Shown: piece after piece, positions 117 to 51,033 of the stretch
Numbering within the stretch: position 1 is the first letter of the stretch
Layout: every line of letters starts with the position of its first letter
Assembly (NCBI GenBank): GCA_035934535.1
Contig: DASYXS010000005.1
Location: 6,707-70,706 of the forward strand
DNA from: a bacterium
GTDB lineage: Bacteria; Sysuimicrobiota; Sysuimicrobiia; Sysuimicrobiales; Segetimicrobiaceae
DNA: 64,000 bases
Direction: 5' to 3'
The notes under the pieces: model-generated
Database searches by the model: none
The model's input: the letters and a program-made list of their open reading frames with translations, nothing else
What the model was told of the DNA's origin: nothing
Program-made: the position numbers and the translations under genes

Positions 117-905
117 GTGAGGCTCCGGGATCGTGTGGCGGTCGTCACCGGCGCGGCCAAGGGGATGGGTGATGCGATCTGCGAGGCGCTGGCCCGCGAG
201 GGCGCGTCCGTCGTTGCCGCCGCGCGTGACGCGGGGGCGCTCGAAGCCCTCGTGGCGCGGCTTGCGCGCGCGGAGGGGGCGCGGCCGCGGCACCTGGCCG
301 TTCCCACCGACGTGACGCGGGAGGACGAGGTGGCCGCCCTCGCGGACCGGACGCGCAAGGAGTTCGGACGCGCGGACATCCTCGTCAACGCCGCGGGGAC
401 GATCGGCCCGATCGAAACGCCGTTGCACAAGATCGCGCCGGAGGAGTGGGACCGGGTCCTCGCCGTCAATCTGCGCGGGGTGTTTCTGTGCTGCCGCGCG
501 TTCGTGCCGTCGATGATCGAGCAGAAGTACGGCAAGATCATCAACATCGCCGGCACCTCGGGCCTCCGCGGCTACCGCTACCGCGCCGCGTACTCGTCCT
601 CGAAGTGGGCGGTCCGCGGGCTCACGCGTACGCTGGCCCTGGAAGTGGGCCCGTACAACATCAACGTGAATGCGATCTTCCCGGGTGTGGTCGAGGGCGA
701 CCGCATGCAGACGATCATCGCGGAGAAGGCGAGGGTGCGGGGTACGTCGCCAAAGGCCGTCTTCGACGAATACGTCTCGGAGATGGCGATGCGCCGGTTC
801 ACGGACGAGACCGACATCGCCAACGCCGTGGTGTTCCTCGCCTCGGACGAAAGCAGGCAGATCGCCGGCCACGAGATCGTGGTCGACGGCGGGTGGGACG
901 TCTAG
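117..905 (+). CDS. SDR family short-chain dehydrogenase/reductase
   Basis: GTG start; N-terminal TGAAKGMG Rossmann motif; YSSSK catalytic Tyr-x3-Lys; 262 aa. Confidence 0.85.
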   Translation: MRLRDRVAVVTGAAKGMGDAICEALAREGASVVAAARDAGALEALVARLARAEGARPRHLAVPTDVTREDEVAALADRTRKEFGRADILVNAAGTIGPIETPLHKIAPEEWDRVLAVNLRGVFLCCRAFVPSMIEQKYGKIINIAGTSGLRGYRYRAAYSSSKWAVRGLTRTLALEVGPYNINVNAIFPGVVEGDRMQTIIAEKARVRGTSPKAVFDEYVSEMAMRRFTDETDIANAVVFLASDESRQIAGHEIVVDGGWDV

Positions 906-907
906 CG

Positions 908-1789
908 ATGCCCGCATCACCGTTCGACTATCACGCACCCGCGACCGTGGCCGAAGCGCTCTCGACGCTCGGCGCGCTCGGGGAGGACGCGAAGGTCCTC
1001 GCCGGCGGACAGAGCCTCGTGCCGCTGCTCACCCTGCGGCTCGTGCGTCCCGCCGCGGTCGTGGACATCCACGGACTGGACGAGCTGCGCGGCGTCCGCT
1101 TCGACGGCAATACGCTCGAGCTCGGCGCGCTCGTCCGGCACCGCGCGCTCGAGCTCGGCGAAGGGCCGCTCGGGGCGTGTCCGCTGCTCCAGGAAGCGGC
1201 CGCGTTGATCGGCAACGTGCGCGTCCGCGCGATGGGGACGATCGGCGGCAGCCTGGCGCACGCGGATCCGGCCGCCGAGCTGCCCGCGGTCATCCGCGCG
1301 CTCGACGGCGTCCTCGTCGCGCGCGGGCCGGCGGGAGAACGGACGATTCCGGCGGCGGAGTTCTTCACAGGCCTGCTCTCGACGTCGCTCCGGCCGGGCG
1401 AGCTGCTCGTGGCGGTCCGGCTGCCGCTCCCGGCCGGCCGCGTGGGCTACGCGGTCGAGGAGTTCACCCGGCGCGCCGGGGACTTCGCGATCGTGGCCGT
1501 CATGGCCGCGGTCGAACTGGACGGCGCGGGGCGCACCTCGCGCGTCCGCGTCGCGATCGCCGGCGCGGGCCCGGCGCCGGTCCGGCTGGCCGGCGTCGAG
1601 CGGGCGCTCGCCGGGGTCGAGCCCTCGGAGCAGGCGTTCCGGCAGGCCGTCGCCGATCAGCGATTGGAGATCGAGCCCGACGACGACGTGCACGCCTCGG
1701 CCGATTACCGCCGGCATCTCACCCGCGTGCTGACCGCGCGGGCGTTGGTCCGCGCCGCCGCGCGCGCGGCGAAGGGAGCGGGGGCATGA
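908..1789 (+). CDS. Molybdopterin dehydrogenase FAD-binding (medium, CoxM-like) subunit
   Basis: ORF-track protein MPASPFDYH...; CoxM/XdhB-like FAD-binding fold motifs (AGGQSL, GTIGGSLAHADPAAE); stop overlaps next start (ATGA). Confidence 0.85.
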   Translation: MPASPFDYHAPATVAEALSTLGALGEDAKVLAGGQSLVPLLTLRLVRPAAVVDIHGLDELRGVRFDGNTLELGALVRHRALELGEGPLGACPLLQEAAALIGNVRVRAMGTIGGSLAHADPAAELPAVIRALDGVLVARGPAGERTIPAAEFFTGLLSTSLRPGELLVAVRLPLPAGRVGYAVEEFTRRAGDFAIVAVMAAVELDGAGRTSRVRVAIAGAGPAPVRLAGVERALAGVEPSEQAFRQAVADQRLEIEPDDDVHASADYRRHLTRVLTARALVRAAARAAKGAGA

Positions 1790-2325
1790 CGGAGCTGACC
1801 ATCGCCTTCACGTTGAACGGGGAGCGGCGCGAGGTCCGCGCCGCGGCGCACGAGACCCTGCTCACCCTGTTGCGGGACGGTCTCGGCGCGACGGAGGTCA
1901 AGGACGGCTGCGGGGAAGGCGTCTGCGGCACCTGCACGGTTCTGCTCGACGGCGAACCGGTGAGCAGCTGCCTGCTGCTCGCGGCCCGCGCCGCCGGGCG
2001 CAGGGTGACCACCGTGCGCGGTCTCGCGCCGGTGGACTCGCCGGCCACCATGAAATCACAGCCGGTCGGAAGCCTGAGCCCGCTGCAGCAGGCGTTCGTG
2101 ACCCACGGCGCGGCGCAGTGCGGATTCTGCACGCCGGGGATGCTCCTCACCGCGCACGCGTTCTTGCAGCAGCACCCGCGGCCGACGCGCGACGACATCC
2201 GCCGGGCGATCTCCGGGAACCTCTGCCGGTGCACCGGCTACGCCAAGATCATCGACGCGATCGAAGCCGCATCGGCCGGCGATGCGGCGCCGGCCGGCTC
2301 CGCGGGCGGCCGCCATGAAGGGTAG
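1786..2325 (+). CDS. Molybdenum hydroxylase (2Fe-2S)-binding small subunit (CoxS-like)
   Basis: Cys clusters CGEGVCGTCTV and QCGFCTPG...CRCTGY; contains one copy of the ~45 bp intragenic repeat (extra ~10 aa SPATMKSQPV between the two Fe-S domains). Confidence 0.85.
   Translation: MTELTIAFTLNGERREVRAAAHETLLTLLRDGLGATEVKDGCGEGVCGTCTVLLDGEPVSSCLLLAARAAGRRVTTVRGLAPVDSPATMKSQPVGSLSPLQQAFVTHGAAQCGFCTPGMLLTAHAFLQQHPRPTRDDIRRAISGNLCRCTGYAKIIDAIEAASAGDAAPAGSAGGRHEG
2023..2070 (+). repeat. Intragenic ~45 bp repeat, copy 1 (core ATGAAAT 2050-2056) inside the CoxS-like gene
   Basis: cgcgccggtGGACTCGCCGGCCACCATGAAATCACAGCCGGtcgg; translated in-frame as VDSPATMKSQPVG. Confidence 0.55.
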
Positions 2326-2330
2326 GCGCC

Positions 2331-4682
2331 GTGGCTGAGCCCCGGGTCCGCGAGGGCTCGGTCGCGGTCCTTCCCGCCGAGCAGCTCCGCGTCGTCGGGC
2401 GCCCGATCCCGCGCCACGACGCGCGCGACAAGGTTCAGGCGGTGACGCTCTACGCCGCCGACTGGCGGATGCCCGGCATGCTGCACGGCGCGGTGCTGCG
2501 CGCGGTGTACCCGTCCGCGCGGATCCGGCGCCTCGACACCGCGCGCGCGGCCGCGCTCCCGGGCGTCGCCGCGGTGCTGACGGCCCGCGACGTGCCGCAC
2601 AACACGTTGTGGACGGACGTGCCCGGTCAGACGAGCCAGGTCGGCGCGCTGCGCGCACGGCTGCAGGTTCTTGCCGAGCGCGTGGTCCGGTACCAGGGCG
2701 AGCCGGTGGCGCTCGTCGCCGCGGAGACGCCGGAGGCGGCGCAGCAGGCGCTCGAGGCGATCGAGGTCGAGTACGAACCTACGGCCGGCGTCTTCGACCC
2801 GGCGGAGGCGCTCCTCCCGGGCGCCGCGCGCGTGCACGAGGAAGGCAATCTGCTCGCGCGGTGGCACGTGCAGTGCGGTGACGCGGACGCGGCGCTCGCG
2901 CGGGCCGACGTCGTCGTCGAGCACACCTATCGCTGTCAGTTCGTCGACCACGCGTATCTCGAGCCCGAGTGCGGCGTGGCGTGGGTCGAGGCCGACGGCG
3001 TCGTCACGATCCGCGTCGCCACGCAGGTGATCGAGCACTTCCGCGACGTCGCCGACGTCCTGGGGCTGCCCCACAACCGGGTGCGCGTCATCGGCACGTA
3101 CGTCGGCGGCGGGTTTGGCGGCAAAGAGGACGTGACGGTCGAGGTCTTCCTCGGCCTGCTCGCGTCGCGGACGCGGCGGCCCGTCCGCATGATCTGGTCC
3201 CGCCAGGAGTCGCTGCTGGCCCGTCCCAAGCGCCATCCGTTCCGGCTCCACTACACGACCGGGGCGTCGCGCGACGGCGCGCTTGTGGCGCAGAAGGTCG
3301 AGCTGCTGGCGGACTCGGGCGCCTACGCCTATCTCAGCGCGCTCGTGCTGATGTACGCGACCGTCACCGCGGCCGGTCCGTACCGCATCCCGAACGCGAC
3401 GATCGACGCGCGCGTCGTCTACACGAACAACCCGCCGACGAGCGCGATGCGGGGCTTCGGCGGCATGCAGATGGTGCTCGGCTATGAGTCGCAGATGGAC
3501 GCGCTCGCGCGCCGTCTGGAGCTGGACCCCGTCGCGATCCGCGTCCGCAACGCGCTGCACAAGGGAGACCGGCTGCCGGTCGGCCAGGAACTCGAGACGC
3601 ACGTCGGGGTGGCGGAGGCGGCGCAGCGCGCCTGGGCCGCGCTTGGGCCCCGCCGCGCCCCGTCGGCGCCCCACCACCGCGCCGGGCGCGGGCTGGCCTG
3701 CAACATCCAGCCGTACGGACGGATCGTCTGGCTCCACGACTGGGCGAGCGCGTGGGTCGGGTTCGAGATGGACGGGACCCTGGTCGTCCGTACCGGCGTG
3801 CCCGATGTCGGCGGCGGCCAGGCGTCGTCGCTGTGCCAGATCGCGGCCGAGGTCCTCGGCGTCGAGCCGGAACGCGTCGCCGTGCACATCGGCGACAGCG
3901 CGCTCACGCCGCTCGCCGGCACGACGACCGCGACCCGCCAGCTCTACATGTCGGGAAACGCCGTGCTGCAGGCGGCGGCCGGCCTGCGGGCGCAGGTCCT
4001 GCCCGTCGCCGCGCAGATGCTGGAGACGCCGCCCGACCGGGTGACGCTCCGCGACGGCGGGGCGGCCGGCGCGTCGGGCCGGCGCCTCGAGTGGGCCGCC
4101 GTGCTGCGAGAATGCGCGCGACTCGGCGTCTCGCGCAACTACCTCGGAGTGTATCACGCTCCGGCGGGGGACCCGGTCGACCTCGATCGCGGGGGCGGGC
4201 GCATTTTTCCCGACTACACGTTCGGCGCGCACGCCGTGGAAGTGGAGGTCGATACCGAGACCGGCGCCGTCGCCGTCGTGCGGCACGTGGCCTGCCACGA
4301 CGTCGGACGCGCCATCAATCCCCAGAGCGTCGAGGGCCAGATTCAGGGCGGCGCGGTGATGGGACTCGGCTACGGCCTCATGGAGGAGGTCGTCGTGGAC
4401 CGCGGCGTCAACCTGTCCACCAACCTCGCCAGCTACCTGATCCCGACCTCGCTCGACGTCCCGGACGTGGAGCCGCTCGTGCTGGAATCGCGCGAGGGCA
4501 AAGGGCCGTTCGGCGCGCGCGGCATCGGCGAGCCGCCCATCGGGCCGCCCGCCGCCGCGATCGCGAACGCCGTCGAAGACGCCGTCGGCGTCCGCATCAC
4601 CGAACTGCCGATCACGCCGGAGCGGGTGGCGCGGGCGCTGGGGTTGCTGCGGCCGGAGGCCGGTCCGCCCCCGGCCCGCTAG
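2331..4682 (+). CDS. Xanthine dehydrogenase family molybdopterin-binding large subunit (CoxL-like, non-CODH)
   Basis: 783 aa; active-site loop SAMRGFGGMQ typical of the XDH/aldehyde oxidase family (not AYXCSFR or AYRGAGR of CO dehydrogenases). Confidence 0.85.
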   Translation: MAEPRVREGSVAVLPAEQLRVVGRPIPRHDARDKVQAVTLYAADWRMPGMLHGAVLRAVYPSARIRRLDTARAAALPGVAAVLTARDVPHNTLWTDVPGQTSQVGALRARLQVLAERVVRYQGEPVALVAAETPEAAQQALEAIEVEYEPTAGVFDPAEALLPGAARVHEEGNLLARWHVQCGDADAALARADVVVEHTYRCQFVDHAYLEPECGVAWVEADGVVTIRVATQVIEHFRDVADVLGLPHNRVRVIGTYVGGGFGGKEDVTVEVFLGLLASRTRRPVRMIWSRQESLLARPKRHPFRLHYTTGASRDGALVAQKVELLADSGAYAYLSALVLMYATVTAAGPYRIPNATIDARVVYTNNPPTSAMRGFGGMQMVLGYESQMDALARRLELDPVAIRVRNALHKGDRLPVGQELETHVGVAEAAQRAWAALGPRRAPSAPHHRAGRGLACNIQPYGRIVWLHDWASAWVGFEMDGTLVVRTGVPDVGGGQASSLCQIAAEVLGVEPERVAVHIGDSALTPLAGTTTATRQLYMSGNAVLQAAAGLRAQVLPVAAQMLETPPDRVTLRDGGAAGASGRRLEWAAVLRECARLGVSRNYLGVYHAPAGDPVDLDRGGGRIFPDYTFGAHAVEVEVDTETGAVAVVRHVACHDVGRAINPQSVEGQIQGGAVMGLGYGLMEEVVVDRGVNLSTNLASYLIPTSLDVPDVEPLVLESREGKGPFGARGIGEPPIGPPAAAIANAVEDAVGVRITELPITPERVARALGLLRPEAGPPPAR

Positions 4683-4683: not shown

Positions 4684-5358
4684 CTAGAATCGCGCCTTGA
4701 CCGACGACTGAACCGGCGCGCCCTTGCCGGCCGGCTCCACCTCGTAGACCACGACCTGGAGCTTCGTGGGCTTGAAGGCGTTGCAGGGGTTGCGTTCTTG
4801 GGGACAGTTCGAGACCGCGACCAGCAGGTCGAGATTCGCGCGCAGGTCGAGGTAGTCGCCGGGCTTCGACTTGGGTTCCTGGATCCCGGTGCGGCCGTCG
4901 GCGGCCACCGGTACGTTCATGAAAACGTTGAAGGAGTAGGGGATCTCGGCGAGCGGGATGCCGTAGGGCCGGAGCGCTCGTTCGAAGTTGTTGCGGCAGT
5001 TGGGCGTGCCGCGCACGCCGTAGCGAAACGCGTTCGTCTGTTCGCTGCAGGACCCGGCGATGAGGTCGTGCGTGCCGCAGGTGTCCGCGGTGATGGTCAT
5101 GAGCTGGGTCGCTTTGGTGGAGTACAGGTGATGGCCCGTGGTGAGAAACAGGGTACCGTTCAGCGACTGCGTGTTCTCGGGGGAGAGTTTGTCGGTGTAG
5201 TCGTTGAGGTTGAAGCAGATGAAATCGGCCACCTGCTGGCCCTCGACGTCCACGATGCGGCAGATCTGGCCCGCCTTGATTGTGAATGCCGTGCCGCCGC
5301 GGGGCGGAATCGTCTCCTCCCAGGCCAGCAGCGACGGGCTGATTCCGGGATGTTCCAT
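4684..5358 (-). CDS. DUF1989 family protein (urea-carboxylase-associated / carboxyguanidine deiminase CgdAB-like)
   Basis: 224 aa from MEHPGISPSL...; ATG at 5358 confirmed on complement (CAT 5356-5358); family hallmarks (TITADTCGTHDL, CRNNF, FMNVPV, GDYLDLRA, SNCPQ). Confidence 0.75.
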   Translation of the reverse strand: MEHPGISPSLLAWEETIPPRGGTAFTIKAGQICRIVDVEGQQVADFICFNLNDYTDKLSPENTQSLNGTLFLTTGHHLYSTKATQLMTITADTCGTHDLIAGSCSEQTNAFRYGVRGTPNCRNNFERALRPYGIPLAEIPYSFNVFMNVPVAADGRTGIQEPKSKPGDYLDLRANLDLLVAVSNCPQERNPCNAFKPTKLQVVVYEVEPAGKGAPVQSSVKARF

Positions 5359-5565
5359 GCGTGCCACCTCCGAGAACGCCTGAATTCGGCCGTGCGCCGG
5401 GCGCCGCCGGCCCGAAACCATGGGCCGCCGTTTTGCGTAGACGGGAAAGCGCCATGCCCGGTCCATCCGACTTCTGGTGGGGAGGATTTGCAACCTGCCT
5501 ACGGGAAACCGGGGGGCGCGCGGCGCAGTTCGTGCGCCGAACACCGTGGGGAGGGGTGGACGAGC

Positions 5566-6690
5566 ATGCGGAACAGGTTTGCGATCGGCTTGTTGCTCGT
5601 GTTCCTGATGTCCGTCATGGTTCCCGGCGCCGGCGCTCAAGCGGGCACGATCAAGATCGGCGTCCCGGTCCCGCTGTCCGGCGGGACCGCCAAGATGGGC
5701 ACCGACATCGTGCAGGCGGCAACGATGGCGGCGGACGAGCAGAACGCGAAGGGCGGCGTCCTCGGGCGCAAGCTCGAGATCGTCTCGTTCGACGACGCGT
5801 GTGACGCCCAGCAGGCCGTGACGGCGGCGCACAAGCTCGTCGACGCCGGCGTGGCCGCGGTGGCGGGCGGCTACTGCTCGTCGGCGGCGATTCCGGCGAG
5901 CGCCGTGTACCACGACGCGGGGGTCGCGTTCGTGGCGGACGCGTCCAGCAACCCCAAGCTCACGGACCAGGGGTTCGAGAACGTGTTCCGCGTCATCGGC
6001 CGTGACGACCAGCAGGGCCCCTACGCGGCCGGCTTCATGACCAAGGACCTGCACGCGAAGAAGGTCGCGATCATCCACGACAACACGCTGTACGCGAAGG
6101 GGTTGGCCACGGCGACCCAGGACGCGCTCAAGAAGATGATGGGCGTCCAGGTCGTCTTCTTCGACGCGATTACGCCGGGCGAGAAGGACTTCTCCGCGGC
6201 GCTGACCAAGGTCAAGAGCCTCAAGCCGGACGTCACCTACTTCACCGGCTACTATCCCGAGGGCGGCCTCATCTGCAAGCAGTTCAAGGACCTGGGCGTC
6301 TCCGGGAAGCTGATGGCGGGCGACGCCAACAACGATCCGACGTTCATCAAGGAGTGCGGCGCCGCGTCCACCGGAGTCTACGTCACGTCGACCCCGCTGC
6401 CACAGGATCAGGCGACCGCCAAGTCGTTCATCTCCCGGTACACGGGCCGGTGGAAGCAGGATCCGGGACCATACTCGGCGCTCGAGTACGACTCCGTCGG
6501 CGTGGTGATCAACGCGATCCAGCGCGCGAAGAGCGCGGACCGGGCGGCGATCATCAAGGCCCTTCATGCGACCAACGCCTACTCGGGCGCGACCGGCAAG
6601 ATCACCTTCGATCAGAAGGGCGACCGGAAGCAGGTGCTCTACATCACCTACCTCATCAAGGGCGACAAGTTCGTGCCCACCGGAATGTGA
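5566..6690 (+). CDS. Branched-chain amino acid/amide ABC transporter substrate-binding protein (LivK/LivJ family)
   Basis: ATG 5566 preceded by GGGAGGGGTGGA RBS; signal peptide MRNRFAIGLLLVFLMSVMVPGAGAQA; type I PBP fold. Confidence 0.85.
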   Translation: MRNRFAIGLLLVFLMSVMVPGAGAQAGTIKIGVPVPLSGGTAKMGTDIVQAATMAADEQNAKGGVLGRKLEIVSFDDACDAQQAVTAAHKLVDAGVAAVAGGYCSSAAIPASAVYHDAGVAFVADASSNPKLTDQGFENVFRVIGRDDQQGPYAAGFMTKDLHAKKVAIIHDNTLYAKGLATATQDALKKMMGVQVVFFDAITPGEKDFSAALTKVKSLKPDVTYFTGYYPEGGLICKQFKDLGVSGKLMAGDANNDPTFIKECGAASTGVYVTSTPLPQDQATAKSFISRYTGRWKQDPGPYSALEYDSVGVVINAIQRAKSADRAAIIKALHATNAYSGATGKITFDQKGDRKQVLYITYLIKGDKFVPTGM

Positions 6691-6707
6691 GGTCTTCGTA
6701 GTGCTGC

Positions 6708-6740
6708 GGGGCCGCCCCGAGCACGGGGGCGGCCCCGTTT
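6708..6740 (+). terminator. GC-rich stem-loop (11 bp perfect stem GGGGCCGCCCC/GGGGCGGCCCC, loop GAGCAC) followed by GTTT, between SBP and permease genes
   Basis: Read directly from sequence 6708-6740; weak T-tract, so more likely an intra-operon attenuator/mRNA-stabilising hairpin than a strong terminator. Confidence 0.4.
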
Positions 6741-6781
6741 GCGCTCCCGGCCCGCGCGAAGCGGGACCATCCTCCTAGTCC

Positions 6782-7681
6782 ATGGAGATCGCCCTCCAGC
6801 AGCTGGTCAACGGGCTGACGGTCGGGGCGTTCTACGCCCTGATCGCGCTCGGCTACACCATGGTGTACGGCATCATCCGCCTGATCAACTTTGCGCACGG
6901 GGACGTGTACGCGGTCGGCGCGTTCCTCGGACTCTCGACGTACGGGCTTTTGGCGATCCTGCATGTCGACAACCCGATCCTGACCACGCTGCTGGCGCTT
7001 GTTGTCTCCATGGGTTTCACCGGACTGCTCGGGACGCTGCTCTACCGGGTCGCCTACCGCCCGCTGCTGCACGCGCGCCTGTCGATCCTGATCTCGGCGA
7101 TCGGCGGGTCGCTGACGCTGGAGTACGGCCTGCTGCTCATCTACAGCCCGTCGTTCCTCGTCTACCCGCACCTCTTCGGCCGCTCCGGGCCGGCGTTTGC
7201 CGGCGTCACGGTTTCCTGGCTGCAGGTCCTCATCTTCGTGTCGAGCATCGTGTTGATGGCGGCGCTGTACCTCATGGTGAACCGCACGAAGACCGGGATG
7301 GCGATGCGCGCGCTCGCGATCAACCAGGACGCCGCGCGCCTGATGGGCATCGACGTCAACCGGGTGATCAGCTTCACGTTCTTTCTGGGGTCGGCGCTGG
7401 CGTCGTTCGCGGGCGTGCTGACGGGCCTGTACTACTCGCAGGTCTCGTTCCTCATGGGCTTTCTGATCGGCCTGAAGGCGTTTACCGCGGCCGTGCTCGG
7501 CGGCGTCGGCAACATTCCGGGCGCCGTCGTCGGCGGCTTCGTCCTCGGCATCCTTGAGAGTCTCGCCGCGGGATACTACTCCAGCCGCTGGAAAGACGTG
7601 GTGGCGTTCGCGGTCCTGATTATCGTGCTGGTGGTGCGGCCGCGCGGCCTCCTCGGCGAACGCGTGGTCGAGCGGATGTGA
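6782..7681 (+). CDS. Branched-chain amino acid ABC transporter permease (LivH-like)
   Basis: 299 aa polytopic membrane protein, LivH family signature region. Confidence 0.85.
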   Translation: MEIALQQLVNGLTVGAFYALIALGYTMVYGIIRLINFAHGDVYAVGAFLGLSTYGLLAILHVDNPILTTLLALVVSMGFTGLLGTLLYRVAYRPLLHARLSILISAIGGSLTLEYGLLLIYSPSFLVYPHLFGRSGPAFAGVTVSWLQVLIFVSSIVLMAALYLMVNRTKTGMAMRALAINQDAARLMGIDVNRVISFTFFLGSALASFAGVLTGLYYSQVSFLMGFLIGLKAFTAAVLGGVGNIPGAVVGGFVLGILESLAAGYYSSRWKDVVAFAVLIIVLVVRPRGLLGERVVERM

Positions 7682-8715
7682 AGGCCGGTCCCGGCGCCCT
7701 GCGCCCGCTGCTTCCGACCGCCCTGGCCGTCGTGGCCGTGCTGGCGGCGATCGCGCTGCCGGTGTTCGGCTCGTCCTACCTGATCGACGTCGGGACTCTC
7801 GTCCTGGTCTACGTCATGCTCGGGCTCGGCCTCAACATCGTGGTCGGGTTCGCCGGCCTGCTCGACCTCGGCTACGCGGCGTTCTTCGCGATCGGGGCCT
7901 ACACGACGGCGTACTTCATGGTCAACAGCCATATGTCGTTCTGGCTGACCCTCCCGATCGCCGCCTGCTTTACCGCCGTGTCCGGCGTCATCATCGGCGC
8001 GCCGACGCTCAGGATGCGCAGCGACTACCTGGCGATCGTGACCCTCGGCTTCGGCGAGATCGTCCGCATCGCCGCGACGAACTTCGCATTTACCGGCGGA
8101 CCCGAGGGCATTTACGACATGCCCCACGCGACGATCGGCTCGCTCGTCCTTCGAACCCCGGCCGCGCTGTACTTCCTCGGCATCGCGTTTGCCCTGGTGG
8201 TGCTCGTGGGCAGCTACAATTTGTCGCGGTCGCGGCTCGGGCGGGCGTGGCTCGCGATCCGCGAGGACGAGGCCGCGGCCCAGGCGGCCGGGATTCACCC
8301 CGTGTACTTCAAGCTGCTGGCCTACGTCCTCGGCGCGATCTTTGCCGGCGCGGCCGGCTCGTTCTTCGCCGTGAAGCTCACGGCGATCAACCCGTCGAGC
8401 TTCACGTTCATTCAATCGGTGACCATTCTGATGGTGATCATCCTGGGCGGCCGGGGCAGCCTGCCGGGCGTGATCGTCGGGGCGGCCGTGATCGTCGTTC
8501 TGCCCGAGGTGCTGCGCGCGTTCGACCAGATCCGAATGCTGACATTCGGCATCGGCCTCATCGTCATGATGCTGCTGCGGCCGCAGGGGTTGTGGCCGAG
8601 CCGGTACGGCCGGATCGAGGCGCGGGAGGTCGCGCTCTCGGAGGCCGAAGCGGCGGCCGGCGTCGCCGCGGGCGCGTCCGCGGCCGATTCCGCGGCGCCC
8701 GGAGGGTCGTCGTGA
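7678..8715 (+). CDS. Branched-chain amino acid ABC transporter permease (LivM-like)
   Basis: GTG start overlapping upstream stop; 345 aa polytopic membrane protein. Confidence 0.8.
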   Translation: MKAGPGALRPLLPTALAVVAVLAAIALPVFGSSYLIDVGTLVLVYVMLGLGLNIVVGFAGLLDLGYAAFFAIGAYTTAYFMVNSHMSFWLTLPIAACFTAVSGVIIGAPTLRMRSDYLAIVTLGFGEIVRIAATNFAFTGGPEGIYDMPHATIGSLVLRTPAALYFLGIAFALVVLVGSYNLSRSRLGRAWLAIREDEAAAQAAGIHPVYFKLLAYVLGAIFAGAAGSFFAVKLTAINPSSFTFIQSVTILMVIILGGRGSLPGVIVGAAVIVVLPEVLRAFDQIRMLTFGIGLIVMMLLRPQGLWPSRYGRIEAREVALSEAEAAAGVAAGASAADSAAPGGSS

Positions 8716-9515
8716 CCGCCGCGCGCCAGCCCGCGGCCGTCGGGACGGGCGCCGTTTTGGGCGTGGACCATCTCACGATGCGTTTCGGCGGCCTCGTCGC
8801 CGTCTCCGACGTGTCGTTTACCGTCCGCCCGCGCGAGATCCTCAGCATCATCGGTCCGAACGGCGCCGGGAAGACGACGGTGTTCAACTGTATTACGGGG
8901 TTCCTGCGTCCCACGGCCGGCCGGATCACGTTCGAAGGCAAGGACCTCACCGGGCTGCGCCCCGATCTCGTGGTCAGGCACGGGATCGCGCGCACGTTCC
9001 AGATGATCCGTCTGTTTCCCGATCTCGGCGTGGACGAGAACGTGATGATCGGTCTCCACGGCCGGATCCGCGCCGGCACGCTGGACTCGCTGCTGCACAC
9101 GCCGCTCCACCGGCGCGAGGAGGCCTGGGTGCGCGAGGAGACGCGCCGGTGGCTCGCGTTCGTCGGGTTGGAGGCCCGCGCCGACCGGCTGGCGCGCGAA
9201 CTCGCGTACGGCAACCAGCGGCGCCTCGAGATCGCGCGGGCGCTCGCGACCGGGCCGCGCCTCTTGATTCTCGACGAGCCGGCGAGCGGCATGAACCCCG
9301 CGGAAAAGGCGGGGCTCGTCCAGCTGGTCGACCGGATTCGCGACTCCGGCGTGACGGTGCTGCTGATCGAGCATGACATGAGCGTCGTGATGGGGATCAG
9401 CGATCGGATCATCGTGCTGGATCACGGCGTGCAGATCGCCGAGGGTGTCCCGGACGAGATCCAGCGCGATCCGAAGGTGATCGAGGCGTACCTCGGCCGG
9501 GAGGACGGCGAGTGA
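8712..9515 (+). CDS. ABC transporter ATP-binding protein (LivG-like)
   Basis: GTGA start/stop overlap at 8712; Walker A GPNGAGKTT, signature YGNQRRLEIA, Walker B LLILDEP. Confidence 0.85.
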   Translation: MTAARQPAAVGTGAVLGVDHLTMRFGGLVAVSDVSFTVRPREILSIIGPNGAGKTTVFNCITGFLRPTAGRITFEGKDLTGLRPDLVVRHGIARTFQMIRLFPDLGVDENVMIGLHGRIRAGTLDSLLHTPLHRREEAWVREETRRWLAFVGLEARADRLARELAYGNQRRLEIARALATGPRLLILDEPASGMNPAEKAGLVQLVDRIRDSGVTVLLIEHDMSVVMGISDRIIVLDHGVQIAEGVPDEIQRDPKVIEAYLGREDGE

Positions 9516-10234
9516 GCCTTCTCCAGGTCCGGGACCTCGTCACCGCGTACGGCAGCATCGAAGCGCTGCACGGGCCGTCGTTCCACGTGGACGAGGGGGA
9601 GATCGTGGCGCTGCTCGGCGCCAACGGCGCGGGAAAGACGACCGCGCTGCGGACCATCTCGGGGCTGCTCCGTCCCCGGTCGGGCGAAGTGCACTTCGCC
9701 GGCCGGCGGATCGACACCCAGCCCGCGCACGAGATCGTGCGGGCGGGCCTGACGCAGGTGCCGGAGGGCCGGTGGATCTTCTCGCTGATGACCGTCGAGG
9801 AAAACCTGCGATTGGGCGCTTTTATCGAGCCGGGCGTCCCGCGCGCCGGACTCGACCGCGTCTTCGCGCTGTTCCCGCGCCTCGCCGAGCGGCGCACGCA
9901 GCTGGCCGGCACGCTGTCCGGCGGGGAGCAGCAGATGCTGGCCATGGCGCGCGCGCTCATGACCAAGCCCCGTCTGCTCCTGCTCGACGAGCCGTCGATG
10001 GGGCTCGCGCCCGTGCTGGTCCGGCTGATCTTCGAAAAGATCGCGGAGATCAACCGCGAAGGGACGACCGTCTTGCTCGTGGAGCAGAATGCCAATGCCG
10101 CCCTCCGCCTCGCGAAGCGCGCGTACGTGCTGGAAAACGGCCGCGTGGCGCTCGAGGGACCGGCGGCGGACCTGGCGCGCAACGAAGCGGTCCGCCGCGC
10201 CTACCTCGGCATAGGCGCCGGCGGCCGCGACTGA
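9512..10234 (+). CDS. ABC transporter ATP-binding protein (LivF-like)
   Basis: Walker A GANGAGKTT, LSGGEQQMLAMARAL, LLLLDEP. Confidence 0.85.
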   Translation: MSLLQVRDLVTAYGSIEALHGPSFHVDEGEIVALLGANGAGKTTALRTISGLLRPRSGEVHFAGRRIDTQPAHEIVRAGLTQVPEGRWIFSLMTVEENLRLGAFIEPGVPRAGLDRVFALFPRLAERRTQLAGTLSGGEQQMLAMARALMTKPRLLLLDEPSMGLAPVLVRLIFEKIAEINREGTTVLLVEQNANAALRLAKRAYVLENGRVALEGPAADLARNEAVRRAYLGIGAGGRD

Positions 10235-10248
10235 TCCCGGAGGCCCCG

Positions 10249-11091
10249 ATGCCCGAACCCCCCGCACTGTACGATCGCGGTCCCGGCACGCCGCTCGACG
10301 TCGACCGCGAGTTCTACGGGCGGCTGGCCCGCGAGGTGATCAGGCGGACGCTCGTCGAGCGGTTCGTCATTCCGATCCGGTCGGGCCGGGCGTGGACGGT
10401 GCCGGCCGGCCACCTGTGCCGCATGATCTGCGTCGACGGCCCACAGGTCGGCGACTTCAACGCCTGGAACCTGCATAATCCGCGCGAGCGGTTCTGGGCG
10501 TCCCGCACCCGGCAGCTCCACGGGACGCACGTGACGGCGTTCGACCGGCTGTGGTCGTGCCTACCGTACCTGCGCCCGATGCTGACGATCACCGCGGACA
10601 CCATCAACTACGGGTTCGACGAGGACGGGGCCGGCTGCCACGACCTGCTGGGCACGCGCTGCGATCCGTACGTGCACAAGATGCTGAACGGCGAGGAGTT
10701 CGACCTGACGTGCCACTCCAACCTGACCCGCGCCGTCGCGCCGTACCATCTCACGGAGCTCGACGTCCACGACGTCCTCAACGTATTCATGGTCACCGGC
10801 CTGCGGAAGGACGGCCGCTATTTCGCGAAGGCGTGCCCCGCGAAGAAGGGCGACCACTTCGAGTTTTTCGCCGAGATGGACCTGCTGTGCGCGCTCTCGA
10901 CCTGCCCCGGCGGCGACATCTCCAAGCCGATCTTCGGTCCGCATCGCGCCGATCCGCTCTCCGTCTGCCGCCCCCTCGCGGTGGAAGTCTACCGGCCCGC
11001 GCCGGTGCTGCTCGAGGGCTGGGCGCCGCGCCCGCCCGCGGACTACCGGGGAGGGCACGGGCTGCGTTCACCCGAATCGACCGGACGCTAG
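10249..11091 (+). CDS. DUF1989 family protein (second paralog; carboxyguanidine deiminase-like)
   Basis: ATG 10249 after GGAGG RBS; 280 aa; paralog of 4684-5358 (TITADT..GCHDLL, CHSNL, FMVTG, GDHFEF, STCPGGD). Confidence 0.75.
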   Translation: MPEPPALYDRGPGTPLDVDREFYGRLAREVIRRTLVERFVIPIRSGRAWTVPAGHLCRMICVDGPQVGDFNAWNLHNPRERFWASRTRQLHGTHVTAFDRLWSCLPYLRPMLTITADTINYGFDEDGAGCHDLLGTRCDPYVHKMLNGEEFDLTCHSNLTRAVAPYHLTELDVHDVLNVFMVTGLRKDGRYFAKACPAKKGDHFEFFAEMDLLCALSTCPGGDISKPIFGPHRADPLSVCRPLAVEVYRPAPVLLEGWAPRPPADYRGGHGLRSPESTGR

Positions 11092-11153
11092 AGGAGTGCG
11101 GGAACCAAAACGGAAATGCCGACCAATCCGTTACCCGGCGCTCGGAGGTCAGT

Positions 11154-12023
11154 ATGGCCCGCCGCAGGACGCGCTTCGGCATCTGCACGGATCAGAACCT
11201 GCCTTGGCCCACGCTCGTCGAACGCTGGCAGTACGTCGAGCGCCTCGGCTTCGACAGCGTCTGGGACTGCGACCACCTGAACCAGCCGAGCAACCCAACA
11301 GGACCGTACTACGAGGGATGGACGCTGCTTGCCGCCCTGGCGGCGCGCACGGAGCGGATCCGCGTCGGCGTCCTCGTGAGCTGCAACACGTTCCGGCACC
11401 CCGGCCTGCTGGCCCAAGAGGCGGTCACCGTCGACCACATATCGAACGGCCGCCTCGAGCTGGGCTTCGGAGCCGGATGGTTCGTCCCCGAGCATCAGCG
11501 GTTCGGCATTCCCTTTCCGCCGAGCGGTGAGCTGGTCGTGCGCTTCCGTGAGGCGGTAGAGGTGCTCGACAGCCTCTTGCGCAACGAGGCGACGACCTTC
11601 GCCGGCAAATACTATCAGCTTCAGGGCGCCTCTGTGCGGCCGCGGCCCGTGCAGAAGCCACGCCCGCCGCTCACGCTCGGGGCCCACGGACCGCGAATGC
11701 TTCGGATCTGCGCCGAGTACGCGGACGCCTGGAACTCGTTCGGTACCGTGGAGGAGATTCGTGAGCGCAACCGGATTCTGGACGAGCAGTGCGCGGCAAT
11801 CGGGCGGGATCCCCAGACGATCTGGCGGTCGTTTTACGGATGGGCGAGCCAGATGGCGAGTCAAGGACTGCCCGATCCATGGTCGAGCGCGTCCGCGTTC
11901 CAGGACATCGTTGGGCGGTACAGCGCGGCCGGGATCAACGAGTTTATCATCGATCAGCCGCGCCCGGAGCAGTTCGCGGTTCTTGAGCGGGTCGCGACCG
12001 ACGTGATTCCCGAGCTGCGCTAG
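11154..12023 (+). CDS. LLM class (luciferase-like) flavin/F420-dependent oxidoreductase
   Basis: ATG 11154 after GGAGGT RBS; 289 aa; LLM fold motifs (LGFDSVWDCDHL, RLELGFGAGW). Confidence 0.75.
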   Translation: MARRRTRFGICTDQNLPWPTLVERWQYVERLGFDSVWDCDHLNQPSNPTGPYYEGWTLLAALAARTERIRVGVLVSCNTFRHPGLLAQEAVTVDHISNGRLELGFGAGWFVPEHQRFGIPFPPSGELVVRFREAVEVLDSLLRNEATTFAGKYYQLQGASVRPRPVQKPRPPLTLGAHGPRMLRICAEYADAWNSFGTVEEIRERNRILDEQCAAIGRDPQTIWRSFYGWASQMASQGLPDPWSSASAFQDIVGRYSAAGINEFIIDQPRPEQFAVLERVATDVIPELR

Positions 12024-12050: not shown

Positions 12051-13094
12051 GTGGCAACCGACGACACACGCACGGAGCCACCCGCGGCGGCCGTCCCGCC
12101 CCGCGGAGCCGGGGTCCCGTCCGATCTCGCACCGGCGGACCTCGAGCGTCTCTACTACTACATGATGCTCCAGCGGCTCGCCGAGGAGCGGGTCGTGAAG
12201 CTCTATCAGACGGGCCAGATCGTCGGCGCCTGCTTCACCGGTTGGGGCCACGAGGCGATCGCCGTCGGCGCCGCCGCCGCGCTCGGTCCGGACGACGTCG
12301 CGGCGACCCTGCACCGCGACCTCGGCGCGCGGCTCGTGCTGGGGATGCCGCTCGGCTACTACTTCGCGAACTTCCTCGGACGGTCGGGCTCGCCCACCCG
12401 CGGCCGTGAAGGTAACCTGCACATCGGCGGCCTCGGGCCGCGCATCCTGCTGCACACCGATTTCATCGGCGGGAACGTCCCGATCGCGGCGGGCGCCGCG
12501 CTCGGCTTCAGCGTCCGCCAAGAGCCGCGCGTCGCGCTGGCCAACTTCGGCGAGGGCACGCTCGCGACGGGCGAGTTCCACGAGGCGGTCAACATGGCGG
12601 CGGTGCTGCGGCTGCCGCTCGTGCTCGTCTGCTGGAACAACCAGTTCGCGCTCTCCACGCCGCTCGCGCGCGAGATCGTGGGGCCGCTCGACGCGCGGAT
12701 GGCCGGGTACGGCATCCACGCGTGCTCCGTCGACGGCAACGACGTGCTCGCGGTGTACCGCGCGGCGCGCGAGGCGGTGGACCGCGCCCGGGCCGGCGGC
12801 GGGCCGTCGTTCGTCGAGGGCCGCACCATGAGGGTGCGGGGACATTCCGAGGCGGACGACGCCTCCTACGTGCCGCGCGCCATGATCGAAGAGGGCCGCC
12901 GCGCGGATCCGGTGGAGCGCTTTGCCCGGGATCTTGTCGACACGGGGGCCGTGACCGCCTTCCGCCTCGACGAGCTGCGCGCGCAGGCGCTCGCGGAAGT
13001 GGACGAGGCGCAGGCGTGGGCGGAAGCGACGCCGCCGCCCGACCCGGCGGAGCTCGAGCACGGCGTGTACTGTGAGGCGACGCCGTGGCCGTAA
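12051..13094 (+). CDS. Thiamine-diphosphate-dependent 2-oxoacid/acetoin dehydrogenase E1 component alpha subunit
   Basis: TPP motif GEG-x26-NN (NFGEGTLATGE...CWNNQFA); 347 aa. Confidence 0.8.
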   Translation: MATDDTRTEPPAAAVPPRGAGVPSDLAPADLERLYYYMMLQRLAEERVVKLYQTGQIVGACFTGWGHEAIAVGAAAALGPDDVAATLHRDLGARLVLGMPLGYYFANFLGRSGSPTRGREGNLHIGGLGPRILLHTDFIGGNVPIAAGAALGFSVRQEPRVALANFGEGTLATGEFHEAVNMAAVLRLPLVLVCWNNQFALSTPLAREIVGPLDARMAGYGIHACSVDGNDVLAVYRAAREAVDRARAGGGPSFVEGRTMRVRGHSEADDASYVPRAMIEEGRRADPVERFARDLVDTGAVTAFRLDELRAQALAEVDEAQAWAEATPPPDPAELEHGVYCEATPWP

Positions 13095-14059
13095 TGACCT
13101 ACATCGAGGCGATCGCGGACGGCCTGCGCCAGGCGATGCGCGCCGACGCATCCGTGATCCTGTTCGGCGAGGACGTGGGCGCGTACGGCGGCGCGTTCAA
13201 GCTGAGCAAGGGGTTCATCGAGGAGTTTGGCGCGTCGCGCGTCATCGATACGCCGATCTGCGAGGCGGCGATCGTCGGAACGGCGGTGGGGGCGGCGCTC
13301 GTCGGGCTGCGGCCCGTCGTCGAGATGCAATTCGCCGACTTCATCTCGAACGCGTTCACGCAGATGGTCAACGTGGCCGCCACCTCCGCGTACCGGGCGG
13401 GCGGCTGCGTGCCGATGGTGGTGCGGGCGCCGTGCGGCGCCGGCACCCACGGCGGGCCGTTCCACTCCCAGTCGATCGAAGGCTACTTCTTCCATACGCC
13501 GGGGCTCAAGATCGTGATGCCGTCCACGCCCGCCGACGCGAAGGGCCTCATCCTCGGGGCGATCGCGGACCCGAACCCCGTCCTGTACCTGGAGCACAAG
13601 GCGCTGTACCGGTCGCAGCGCGGTCACGTCGAGGACGGCCTCGCCATCGAACCGCTCGGCCGCGCCGCGGTGCGGCGGCCCGGACGCGATCTCACGGTGC
13701 TGACCTACGGGATGATGGCGCACCGGAGCCTCGAGGCCGCGGAGCGCGCCGCCGCGGACGGGATCGAGGCCGAGGTGATCGACCTGCGTACGCTCCTGCC
13801 GCTTGACCTCGACACGATCACGGAGTCGGCGGCGCGGACGAGCCGCGTCCTCATCGTGCACGAGGACCGGCTGCGGGGCGGGATCGGCGCGGAGATCGCC
13901 GCGCATCTCGGCGAGCATCTGTTCACGTCGCTCGACGCGCCGGTCTCGCGGATCGGCGCGCCGGACACGCCGGTCCCGTACGCCCCGCCGCTCGAGACGG
14001 CCTATCTCCCGAGCGTGGACCGGATCTGCGAGGGAATCACGCGCCTCGCGCGCTGGTGA
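13094..14059 (+). CDS. 2-oxoacid dehydrogenase E1 component beta subunit (transketolase-like)
   Basis: ATG 13094 overlapping alpha stop (TAATG); alternative GTG 13085; E1-beta conserved core; no E2/E3 gene follows. Confidence 0.8.
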   Translation: MTYIEAIADGLRQAMRADASVILFGEDVGAYGGAFKLSKGFIEEFGASRVIDTPICEAAIVGTAVGAALVGLRPVVEMQFADFISNAFTQMVNVAATSAYRAGGCVPMVVRAPCGAGTHGGPFHSQSIEGYFFHTPGLKIVMPSTPADAKGLILGAIADPNPVLYLEHKALYRSQRGHVEDGLAIEPLGRAAVRRPGRDLTVLTYGMMAHRSLEAAERAAADGIEAEVIDLRTLLPLDLDTITESAARTSRVLIVHEDRLRGGIGAEIAAHLGEHLFTSLDAPVSRIGAPDTPVPYAPPLETAYLPSVDRICEGITRLARW

Positions 14060-14130: not shown

Positions 14131-14826
14131 ATGTTTGAGATGAAGGGCTCGGTTCCTCGTGCCAAAGCCTCCCGGGCGCCCGCGCCGTCCCGGCCCGGTC
14201 CCGACGATACCCGCGACAAACTGCTCAAGGCCGCCGAGGAGATCTTCGCGGAGCGCGGCTTCCAGGCCGCGACCGTGCGCGAGATCTGCCTGCGCGCCGG
14301 AGCGAACGTCGCCGCGATCAACTACCACTTCGGGGACAAACTCAGCCTGTATACCGAGGTGCTGAAGAAATTTGCCCGCACCCTCGACGTCGAGGGGAGC
14401 GTGGCCGGTCAAACGATGCCGCCCGAGGATCTTCTGCGCGCGATCATCCGCCTGCGGCTTCGCGCCGTCTTTTCCTCGGACCACCCGGACTGGTTGTTTC
14501 GGGTGATGGCGCACGAGTGGGCGCAGCCGACCCCCGCGATGGATCGCGTGCTCAACGGAACCATGCGGCCGCTGTACGACCGTTTCCGGCAGATCGTGGG
14601 GACGATCATCGGCCGGCCGCCGGACGATGAGAAGACGCGGCTCTGCGTCCACAGCATCATCGGCCAGGCCCTCCACTACGTGCAGGGGCGGCCTGTGCTT
14701 GCGCGGCTGTGGCCGGATCTTACGATGACCCCGCAGCAGGTGGACCGGATCGCCGACCATATCGCGGATTTCTCGCTGGCGTACCTGCAGCGGTGCACGC
14801 CGGAGCGCCGGCGGACGCGGGCATGA
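14131..14826 (+). CDS. TetR/AcrR family transcriptional regulator
   Basis: N-terminal HTH (LLKAAEEIFAERGFQAATVREICLRAGANVAAINYHFGDK); first gene of the efflux operon, as E. coli ybiH/cecR. Confidence 0.85.
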   Translation: MFEMKGSVPRAKASRAPAPSRPGPDDTRDKLLKAAEEIFAERGFQAATVREICLRAGANVAAINYHFGDKLSLYTEVLKKFARTLDVEGSVAGQTMPPEDLLRAIIRLRLRAVFSSDHPDWLFRVMAHEWAQPTPAMDRVLNGTMRPLYDRFRQIVGTIIGRPPDDEKTRLCVHSIIGQALHYVQGRPVLARLWPDLTMTPQQVDRIADHIADFSLAYLQRCTPERRRTRA

Positions 14827-18061: not shown

Positions 18062-18064
18062 GCA

Positions 18065-51029: not shown

Positions 51030-51033
51030 GCCG

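Follow-up and report, generated by a model that had tools for sequence, protein, structure and literature searches.

Two DUF1989 paralogs of predicted catalytic type, distinct from CgdA and CgdB, flank a LivKHMGF importer in a 64-kb window lacking urea and guanidine carboxylase genes

We analyzed a 64-kb stretch of DNA (64,000 nucleotides of contig DASYXS010000005.1, from an uncultured soil bacterium of the Segetimicrobiaceae; hereafter the window) in which two genes of the DUF1989 family (Pfam PF09347), called here DUF1989-A and DUF1989-B, lie on either side of a complete set of livKHMGF importer genes. The two proteins are distinct from CgdA and CgdB, the subunits of carboxyguanidine deiminase, and both appear to be zinc enzymes of the catalytic type. 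The importer genes and DUF1989-B form a module that recurs across phyla. By analogy with characterized enzymes of the family, we regard it as an even call that the two proteins act, within a shuffled gene island, in a carboxylase-independent, zinc-dependent C-N cleavage of an imported amino-acid-like, nitrogen-rich compound. The first-pass annotation of this DNA had already placed the two genes around the importer, and the frame plot, the translations and Pfam agree with it down to the exact coordinates. Lists of open reading frames are full of artifacts at the GC content of the window (about 70%), and we therefore fixed the gene calls using translations and a frame plot of GC content at third codon positions. 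The features of the locus are as follows.

4684-5358, minus strand: DUF1989-A, 224 aa; ATG start, GGAGG ribosome-binding site
5359-5565: intergenic region from which DUF1989-A and livK diverge; aligned with 17 related loci, motif searches, Rfam
5566-6690, plus strand: livK, periplasmic substrate-binding protein (SBP) of the LivK/LivJ type with a Sec signal peptide; Peripla_BP_6, 210 bits
6782-7681, plus strand: livH permease; BPD_transp_2, 160 bits; LivH is the best NCBIfam model
7678-8715, plus strand: livM permease; BPD_transp_2, 147 bits; LivM is the best NCBIfam model
8712-9515, plus strand: livG ATPase; ABC_tran and BCA_ABC_TP_C; LivG is the best NCBIfam model
9512-10234, plus strand: livF ATPase; ABC_tran and BCA_ABC_TP_C; LivF is the best NCBIfam model
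10249-11091, plus strand: DUF1989-B, 280 aa; begins 14 nt past livF, with its own GGAGG ribosome-binding site
11154-12023, plus strand: F420-type luciferase-like (LLM) oxidoreductase; Bac_luciferase, 178 bits; TIGR03560, 229.9 for a cut-off of 231.4
12051-13094, plus strand: thiamine pyrophosphate (TPP)-dependent E1 alpha subunit; Pfam E1_dh (for the E1 alpha/beta pair, with Transket_pyr and Transketolase_C)
13085-14059, plus strand: TPP-dependent E1 beta subunit; Pfam, together with E1 alpha, E1_dh, Transket_pyr and Transketolase_C

The livH/livM, livM/livG and livG/livF junctions are 4-nt overlaps, and the whole run from livK to the E1 beta gene lies on a single strand, its junctions being such overlaps or gaps of 14-91 nt. 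To judge from the gene layout, this run is most likely one transcription unit, with DUF1989-B as its sixth gene. The gene after DUF1989-B had been described as an LLM flavin oxidoreductase; the LLM assignment stands, and the cofactor type is corrected to F420. No E2 partner for the E1 pair was found in the window.

To our knowledge, only two activities have been assigned in the large DUF1989 family, those of carboxyguanidine deiminase and of trimethylamine N-oxide (TMAO) demethylase. Membership of the family holds for both proteins of the window, which match PF09347 over its full profile (positions 1-168 of 168 for DUF1989-A and 2-168 for DUF1989-B) with 193.6 and 183.6 bits for a cut-off of 27, and which keep the residues of the zinc site. 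They are diverged paralogs, as had been noted, with 33.5% identity. The label "carboxyguanidine-deiminase family" that they had been given goes too far, since only the Pfam family is common to them and the deiminase. The CgdB (UAAP2) model is the top NCBIfam model for both, yet the scores stay well under its equivalog cut-off (TIGR03424, 284.7), with 188.8 for DUF1989-A and 49.5 for DUF1989-B, and those for the CgdA (UAAP1) model are also too low (133.5 and 36.5 for TIGR03425, cut-off 205.95). As positive controls we used canonical Cgd genes adjoining urea carboxylase on Pantoea and Novosphingobium replicons; the CgdB copies score 329.5 and 336.0 with TIGR03424 and the Pantoea CgdA scores 302.5 with TIGR03425. 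Relatives of DUF1989-A reach 189.7-194.8 with TIGR03424, and a Paraburkholderia relative of DUF1989-B reaches 55. CgdAB is the carboxyguanidine deiminase (UAAP1/UAAP2) for which PMC11410670 and PMC12623156 cite Schneider et al. 2020; its phylogenetic definition takes in all that descends, in the PF09347 tree, from the ancestor that CgdA and CgdB have in common (PMC11410670). Our neighbor-joining tree (29 sequences, including two Cgd pairs, 201 columns, 100 bootstraps) contains a CgdA+CgdB clade that fits this definition (81% bootstrap). DUF1989-A and DUF1989-B fall outside it, the former in a clade of its own and the latter with the structure 3DI4, both at 100%.

The two paralogs have different closest relatives. 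DUF1989-A is 38-43% identical to canonical CgdB, and its best match among solved structures is the core of the TMAO demethylase (9Q59, E = 5e-25). DUF1989-B matches PDB entry 3DI4 with E = 5e-72 and 51% identity over 254 aa, and has in common with it an insertion ahead of the HD motif (Y-G-[IF]-D-x-x-G) and a C-terminal tail (W-x-P...Y-[RKD]-[GR]-x-H-G). There is no curated model of this 3DI4/SPO0365-type subfamily; by identity, indels and clade, DUF1989-B belongs to it and DUF1989-A does not. Neither protein is a TMAO demethylase by the corresponding model (NF053776, cut-off 1100; 129.6 for DUF1989-A and 33.7 for DUF1989-B), both being single-domain. DUF1989-A is thus read here as a CgdB-like paralog outside Cgd, and DUF1989-B as a member of the 3DI4/SPO0365-type subfamily, both probably of the catalytic type. 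A search of the full-text literature returned no functional study of either subfamily, and source databases label the homologs of both "urea carboxylase-associated."

The prediction of catalytic activity comes from the metal site. Cryo-EM of Paracoccus TMAO demethylase (TDM) shows a 3Cys:Zn site formed by C285, C301 and C365, with D220, F327 and D367 surrounding the substrate (PMC13619132), and the same zinc cysteines are found in 3DI4, 3ORU and 3SIY (PMC12560246). In our alignment, the equivalents of the three cysteines and of D220, as well as the HD motif, are kept in DUF1989-A, DUF1989-B, CgdB, 3DI4 and 3ORU. All three cysteines and the aspartate are gone from CgdA in the same alignment, in line with PMC11271267, where CgdA is called an inactive cognate. 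The position of F327 is occupied by Met in both DUF1989-A and DUF1989-B, and that of D367 by Gln in DUF1989-A, as in CgdB, and by Gly in DUF1989-B. Since the zinc site is intact in both, the two proteins are predicted to be catalytic-type Zn(Cys)3 enzymes and not a pair of one catalytic and one degenerate subunit in the manner of CgdA and CgdB. We also rejected a CgdA/CgdB-like heteromer of the two, since both carry the catalytic site, belong to different transcription units and occur apart in other genomes.

The lack of a biotin carboxylase, an allophanate hydrolase and a riboswitch, first noted for the immediate neighborhood, holds for the whole window. Queries with urea carboxylase (from Pantoea), PxpBC/AHS proteins and amidase gave no tblastn match in the 64 kb, Pfam scans of ~50 of its called genes gave no biotin carboxylase, Amidase or AHS domain, and Rfam gave no match of any kind at gathering thresholds, so that the carboxylase, allophanate hydrolase and nearby riboswitch of a guanidine carboxylase operon are all missing from the window. 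The same pattern is seen elsewhere: none of ~130 related loci of DUF1989-A or DUF1989-B has a full-length urea/guanidine carboxylase within 8-10 kb, and of the 143 loci that we fetched, the two canonical Cgd loci are the only ones with a urea-carboxylase-like gene. A partial exception is the Klebsiella pneumoniae plasmid pKP0155-1 (L087, 9001-18816), where a copy of DUF1989-B adjoins a biotin/lipoyl protein and split biotin carboxylase and AHS genes lie a few kb away. These encode a biotin carboxylase and an AHS-type "urea amidolyase family" protein, accompanied by PxpA and a DUF1445-type "hydro-lyase," with an IS1 element between. This gene set is a split urea-carboxylase-like system, and the locus is the only one of DUF1989-B with carboxylase-like genes near. 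The absence of a carboxylase should not surprise the specialist, because databases already show solo DUF1989 genes in large numbers. Such genes are not unusual: thousands exist, among them two solved structures of unassigned function and the TMAO demethylase. What is new is that both paralogs are of the non-Cgd and, by their predicted metal site, catalytic type, and that the livKHMGF-B module recurs across phyla.

To study the conservation of the locus, we scanned metagenome contigs with the SBP as query and took an SBP identity of >=76% to define the close set. The closest public relatives are soil metagenome-assembled genomes (MAGs) labeled "Bacillati bacterium ANGP1," "Bacillota bacterium" (Centralia) or simply "bacterium." DUF1989-B follows livF directly in 10 of the 11 loci of the close set with enough downstream DNA, is also found after livF in L003-L010, and is retained there across relatives of 77-95% identity. 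The E1 alpha and beta genes downstream of it are retained throughout (L003-L010, L106-L125) and are also present in L132. The slot just past DUF1989-B is variable, being occupied by the LLM gene here, by a short-chain dehydrogenase/reductase (SDR) in L009/L010/L123-125, and by a dehydrogenase with DAO, FAO_M and GCV_T domains in L003/L119. L115 has an extra DUF1989 gene, apparently of the catalytic type, ahead of its DAO-FAO_M-GCV_T gene. This third DUF1989 gene, right after DUF1989-B (14512-15114; 46% identity to DUF1989-A), has a counterpart in L063 (~10825-11418; 3ORU-like), and both encode the three zinc cysteines; runs of DUF1989 paralogs of predicted catalytic type are thus recurrent.

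The position of DUF1989-A is another matter. It is divergent and upstream of livK in 15 of the 18 loci of the close set, and is missing from beside livK in loci of the Centralia type (L009/L010, L123-125); in one such MAG, an 81%-identical DUF1989-A is found by itself on a different contig, in surroundings unrelated to these (L093). In five relatives (L003, L114, L115, L119, L120) it heads a divergent operon whose order is DUF1989-A, a CysK-like enzyme dependent on pyridoxal phosphate (PALP), PxpA (LamB), CoxMS, a second xanthine-dehydrogenase-type subunit, an F420 LLM and a CoA-transferase. The genes of that operon are found here at 20.7-27.7 kb, and the pairing of DUF1989-A with CoxMSL-type genes recurs in L094, L095, L063, L106-110 and L122. 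The location of DUF1989-A beside liv is lineage-specific, and the bracketing of the importer, as it had been described, is not a conserved arrangement. The proposed functional link of the two genes to the importer is supported by neighborhood for DUF1989-B, with its conserved synteny behind livF, and not for DUF1989-A. The overall picture is of a persistent set of ~20 catabolic genes whose order has been shuffled; the two DUF1989 genes sit in a catabolic island of ~25 kb.

Beyond the close lineage, at E <= 1e-10, there are at least 7999 homologs of DUF1989-B (at 90% clustering) and 2089 of DUF1989-A. Those of DUF1989-B in Proteobacteria are 59-67% identical to it, and such identity between phyla suggests, from sequence, a common small-molecule substrate. 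A plasmid of Paraburkholderia sprentiae, the independent case that tells us most, carries the whole livKHMGF-B module (LivK 57%, LivH 58%, LivM 58%, LivG 60%, LivF 60% and DUF1989-B 65% identity), in the order EutA-like racemase-family gene, livK, livH, livM/G, livF, ferritin-like gene, DUF1989-B, DadA. It follows from these identities, 57-60% for the Liv proteins and 65% for DUF1989-B, that the six genes have travelled between phyla together as one module. On IncF plasmids of Klebsiella and Enterobacter, and in P. largidicola, DUF1989-B is the last gene after a polar-amino-acid ATP-binding cassette (ABC) importer and a GntR regulator. In a Methylomirabilota MAG (L063), it diverges from liv genes that are not orthologous to those described here and is followed by the 3ORU-like DUF1989. 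Amidases or M20 enzymes are found nearby in several groups: an amidase lies directly upstream of DUF1989-B in 7 Dehalococcoidia loci, M20 hydrolases flank it in Chloroflexia and Nitrolancea loci, and an M20 enzyme of the hydantoinase/carbamoylase family adjoins a 3ORU-like DUF1989 on a Klebsiella plasmid. In 38 of ~76 genome loci, from Dehalococcoidia, an epimerase-like neighbor, of the NAD-dependent epimerase/dehydratase family (~276 aa), lies within three genes of the B-clade gene and is usually directly downstream on the same strand (e.g., L015:10001-11725). The A clade has three kinds of context elsewhere: an operon of CoxMSL, DUF2848, cupin, LLM and DUF1989-A (L094), a location beside liv and a CoxL-type gene for a DUF1989-A protein named Rokuibacteriota by NCBI (L095-97), and a location with a glutamine-synthetase-like gene on one side and UbiD on the other, where AllG is also near, as is the same CysK-like gene (L098-100). 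Its recurring partners are CoxMSL (xanthine-dehydrogenase-type), LLM, CysK-like and PxpA genes.

The importer provides hints about the cargo. A single operon encodes its Peripla_BP_6 SBP, its two permeases of the BPD_transp_2 family and its two ATPases, which carry the C-terminal BCA motif; this is the composition of the HAAT (LivKHMGF) importers. LivJ, LivH, LivM, LivG and LivF are the best NCBIfam models, and all five scores fall under the E. coli equivalog/subfamily cut-offs; hence, specificity for Leu, Ile or Val is not implied by the models. The closest solved structure to the SBP is the E. coli leucine-specific binding protein (LS-BP; 1USG, E = 3e-64). In the alignment with it, S79, T102 (Ser here), Y202 and E226 (Asp here) are kept, and the pocket positions W18 and L77 are Met and Tyr. 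We take the four kept residues to be the contacts of LivJ/LS-BP for the alpha-amino and alpha-carboxylate groups of the ligand. If these roles are right, the cargo would be an alpha-amino-acid-like molecule with a side chain other than that of Leu.

These elements can be assembled into a scheme. The Liv system would import an amino-acid-like, nitrogen-rich compound, on which (or on an early intermediate) DUF1989-B would perform a zinc-assisted C-N cleavage independent of any carboxylase and without prior ATP-dependent carboxylation. The likeliest chemistry, by analogy with CgdB, would be a hydrolytic deimination converting a guanidino or (cyclic) amidino group to a ureido or amide group and NH3. 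We favor it because it is the chemistry of the nearest characterized relative, because DUF1989-A keeps the pocket motifs of CgdB, and because enzymes that would act on a ureido or amide product (amidase-signature or carbamoylase/M20) turn up repeatedly beside DUF1989 genes. The adjacent oxidoreductase and the E2-less TPP E1 could then process the carbon skeleton. DUF1989-A would work without a CgdA partner, in the neighboring divergent set that includes the CysK-like enzyme, PxpA, two xanthine-dehydrogenase-type hydroxylases, the F420 LLM and the CoA-transferase; this set suggests the breakdown of an N-heterocyclic or ureide-type moiety. The carbamoylase, amidase, lactamase and EutA-like neighbors give some hints of substrates, and the candidates suggested by context are guanidino amino acids, cyclic amidines and guanidines (ectoine-like compounds, creatinine, glycocyamidines, guanidinohydantoin) and lactams. 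Two more specific routes were considered and set aside. A pathway from creatinine through N-methylhydantoin to sarcosine is hinted at by HydAB and DAO-GCV_T genes in L003; the window has neither HydAB nor DMGDH-like genes, only ~11 of 80 genome loci have HydAB less than 10 kb from DUF1989-B, and HydA is nearest to caprolactamase, below the cut-off. Creatinine is kept only as one candidate substrate class. A link to 5-oxoproline and the gamma-glutamyl cycle was not adopted, the relevant neighbors (Pcp in Azospirillum, PxpA, and GGT in Dehalococcoidia) being recurrent but heterogeneous and without a background control.

Compared with known systems, the locus may work most like a carboxylase-free version of the CgdB step, neither protein being a member of Cgd or Tdm. 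The resemblance to CgdAB lies in the Pfam family, in the Zn(Cys)3 site, D220 equivalent and DTCGxHD, NxFMNVP and CPQ motifs that DUF1989-A has in common with CgdB, and in a reaction that is plausibly of the same type, the deimination of a C(=NH) group. The differences are that the locus has, within the 64 kb, no degenerate CgdA-type partner, carboxylase, allophanate hydrolase or guanidine riboswitch, and that its importer is of the Liv type, whereas the one Cgd operon that we examined for this (Pantoea, L088) has a three-gene ABC importer whose SBP is annotated as a putative urea-binding protein. The protein of 3DI4, an uncharacterized structural genomics target, resembles DUF1989-B in insertion, C-terminal tail and zinc cysteines; what the locus described here contributes is a conserved setting with importer and E1. 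The TMAO demethylase Tdm (9Q59/9Q5L/9Q5A; PMC13619132) has the same DUF1989 catalytic core with the 3Cys-Zn site and D220, is carboxylase-independent, and finds an echo in the GCV_T-containing enzyme that adjoins DUF1989-B in some relatives. It differs in being a three-domain fusion of ~790 aa (DUF1989-like, DUF1989 and GCV_T), whereas DUF1989-A and DUF1989-B are single-domain and do not keep F327 and D367. Proteins of the 3ORU/3SIY type offer a parallel, as solo DUF1989 of the catalytic type after an amino-acid ABC importer with no carboxylase (on a Klebsiella plasmid, next to a carbamoylase), and the L063 paralog that directly follows the B-clade gene is of that type; they form a separate clade (100% bootstrap) and are only 30% identical to DUF1989-A or DUF1989-B.

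Several observations weigh against the proposed role of the DUF1989 enzymes. No activity has been assigned in either subfamily, and the chemistry is proposed by analogy with deimination and TMAO demethylation, two DUF1989 reactions that are very unlike each other. Most of the B-clade genome loci sampled are from Dehalococcoidia and have no importer nearby, so the link to an importer is recurrent, not universal; the commonest neighbor in this clade is the epimerase-like gene (38 of ~76 genome loci, L011-L082). In one relative (L129, contig Ga0207416_1001526, 12965-14640; SBP 92% identity) livF is followed after 84 nt by the LLM gene: DUF1989-B has been lost, and DUF1989-A, liv, LLM and E1 are kept. 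More distant SBP orthologs (51-66% identity; L132, L135) have no DUF1989 beside them and keep SDR and E1. Together, these loci indicate that the importer and E1 can work without DUF1989-B, and shared descent, not selection, may be what the synteny of the close lineage shows. One could thus suppose that liv imports branched-chain or other proteinogenic amino acids for an E1-dependent 2-oxoacid pathway, the DUF1989 genes being unrelated to it in a gene-dense, rearranging region. This would suit an SBP that is most like E. coli LivJ/LS-BP, as well as a DUF1989-A that moves independently of liv among relatives with shuffled gene orders. We nevertheless consider it unlikely, given the retention of DUF1989-B at 14 nt past livF, the return of the six-gene module at 57-65% identity on a beta-proteobacterial plasmid, the unrelated amino-acid ABC systems that also end with DUF1989-B, and the side-chain pocket residues of the SBP, which are unlike those of LivJ/LS-BP.

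The main rival to deimination concerns the chemistry itself. DUF1989-B, DUF1989-A or both could be non-hydrolytic lyases in the manner of Tdm, cleaving an N-oxide, N-hydroxy or N-methyl hemiaminal-type substrate to an amine and an aldehyde, the latter passing to an SDR, an LLM or a dehydrogenase dependent on tetrahydrofolate (THF). Such an aldehyde would explain the adjacent SDR, LLM and GCV_T enzymes: an SDR/epimerase-type NAD enzyme comes right after DUF1989-B in L009/L010/L123-125 and beside it in the 38 Dehalococcoidia loci, and an 813-aa DAO-FAO_M-GCV_T protein follows it in L003/L119/L115, with a THF domain that is also fused to DUF1989 in Tdm. The structural match of DUF1989-A to the TDM core, the D220 and zinc triad in common with it, and the ferritin-like protein, possibly an N-oxygenase, ahead of DUF1989-B in P. 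sprentiae are consistent with this chemistry. However, the substrate contacts F327 and D367 are replaced, DUF1989-A being closer to CgdB than to Tdm at these contacts (CPQ and NxFMNVP motifs), the demethylase model gives about 130 and 34 bits for its cut-off of 1100, the GCV_T neighbor is confined to one sub-lineage, and the amidase and carbamoylase neighbors better match hydrolysis. Lyase chemistry therefore looks distinctly improbable to us. Finally, DUF1989-A and DUF1989-B might be a diverged CgdA/CgdB pair serving a guanidine/urea carboxylase and an allophanate hydrolase encoded elsewhere. Our negative searches cover the 64-kb window, and a carboxylase may lie in the rest of the genome, which we have not seen; the Pfam family, the identity of DUF1989-A to CgdB and the "urea carboxylase-associated" names of the homologs would fit. 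Yet the two proteins fail equivalog cut-offs that the controls pass, lie outside the Cgd clade, both retain the full zinc site where the Cgd heteromer combines a catalytic CgdB with a CgdA lacking it, are encoded on opposite strands in separate transcription units and occur separately in other genomes; moreover, neither a guanidine riboswitch nor, in the ~130 related loci, a full-length carboxylase accompanies them. We give this possibility hardly any credence.

If carboxylase- and ATP-independent deimination of guanidino or amidino compounds were confirmed, it would add a route to the mineralization of organic nitrogen. We offer, as a tentative extension, that the DUF1989-B subfamily could represent a third reaction of the fold: needing neither a carboxylase nor ATP, it would deiminate, or open the ring of, an amino-acid derivative of the guanidino or cyclic-amidine type that dedicated amino-acid ABC importers bring in, with DUF1989-A as a homomeric deiminase of a stable substrate. 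Together they could form a widespread route by which bacteria of soil and ocean (Chloroflexota, with SAR202-cluster MAGs among them, Methylomirabilota and Proteobacteria) mobilize guanidine or amidine nitrogen. That the DUF1989-B subfamily hides a new, widespread reaction in organic-nitrogen metabolism is a conjecture we hold with some doubt. This very widespread subfamily has had a crystal structure for years and no assigned function, and it sits repeatedly beside amino-acid importers; we see in it less a surprise than a sensible starting point for finding a new enzyme. Its conserved pairing with a specific binding protein gives a direct way to approach the ligand by experiment. There is also a practical consequence: the "urea carboxylase-associated" annotation is misleading and unsafe for nitrogen-cycle inference from metagenomes, and guanidine-use predictions made from PF09347 matches alone would be false positives.

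The leader of livK contains a conserved motif, GGAGGATTTGCAACC, at 5481-5495, which is largely kept in most of 17 related loci. It is followed at 5522-5538 by a perfect inverted repeat, GGCGCA-N5-TGCGCC; among the closest relatives the arms stay the same and the loop varies. This repeat may be an operator or an attenuator hairpin; its pattern is not rarer than chance (39 of 100 shuffles). A structured RNA in the leader was rejected, there being no credible Rfam match (by E-value, only a spurious snoRNA match with E = 0.63) and a folding z-score of -2.0. No promoter-like site for a consensus sigma-70 promoter was found, and terminator-like sites were no more numerous than in shuffles, with none in the gaps from livK to E1 beta; both searches are uninformative at 70% GC.

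The remaining catabolic genes around the locus are listed below.

117-905, plus strand: SDR; Pfam
893-1789, 1786-2325 and 2331-4682, plus strand: xanthine-dehydrogenase-family CoxM/S/L-like genes, convergent on DUF1989-A; Pfam
20698-22442, minus strand: CoA-transferase A/B; Pfam, NCBIfam
22435-23403, minus strand: second F420 LLM; Pfam, NCBIfam
23403-25736, minus strand: second xanthine-dehydrogenase-type Mo subunit; Pfam, NCBIfam
25718-26506, minus strand: PxpA/LamB; Pfam, NCBIfam
26587-27681, plus strand: CysK-like enzyme dependent on pyridoxal phosphate; Pfam, NCBIfam

The best NCBIfam model for the xanthine-dehydrogenase-type set at 893-4682 is PucD, with 554 bits for a cut-off of 784. The coxL-like gene, which ends at 4682, and DUF1989-A, whose stop codon on the minus strand is at 4684-4686, converge with a single nucleotide between their stop codons, which leaves no space for a terminator. 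The two PucD-like Mo subunits of the xanthine dehydrogenase family (2331-4682 and 23403-25736) are 62% identical to each other and share the region with a regulator of the PucR family, of the purine catabolism type, at 32932-34629. Between the E1 beta and CoA-transferase genes lies an efflux-type cassette (14131-20337) with a CecR/TetR-type regulator, an HlyD-family adaptor, a double-ATPase ABC protein and two ABC-2 permeases. The CoA-transferase genes are ~1.3 kb or less downstream of E1 beta in L006, L107 and L110, and the cassette therefore looks like an insertion.

Further along the window there is a second, diverged Liv-type importer, with livH/M-like genes at 57137-59001, an SBP at 59017-60309 and ATPases at 60330-61850. 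Upstream of it are two M24 proteins of the creatinase/prolidase type (53538-54755 and 54866-56122) and an Amidohydro_2 protein (56142-57125). Relatives of creatinase and ectoine hydrolase act on amidino or cyclic amidine compounds. The block at 35.9-50.3 kb contains a sugar-type SBP, a permease and Amidohydro_2 genes, and is followed at 50337-52412 by three successive genes with Dabb (stress-responsive A/B barrel) domains, two on the plus strand and one on the minus strand.

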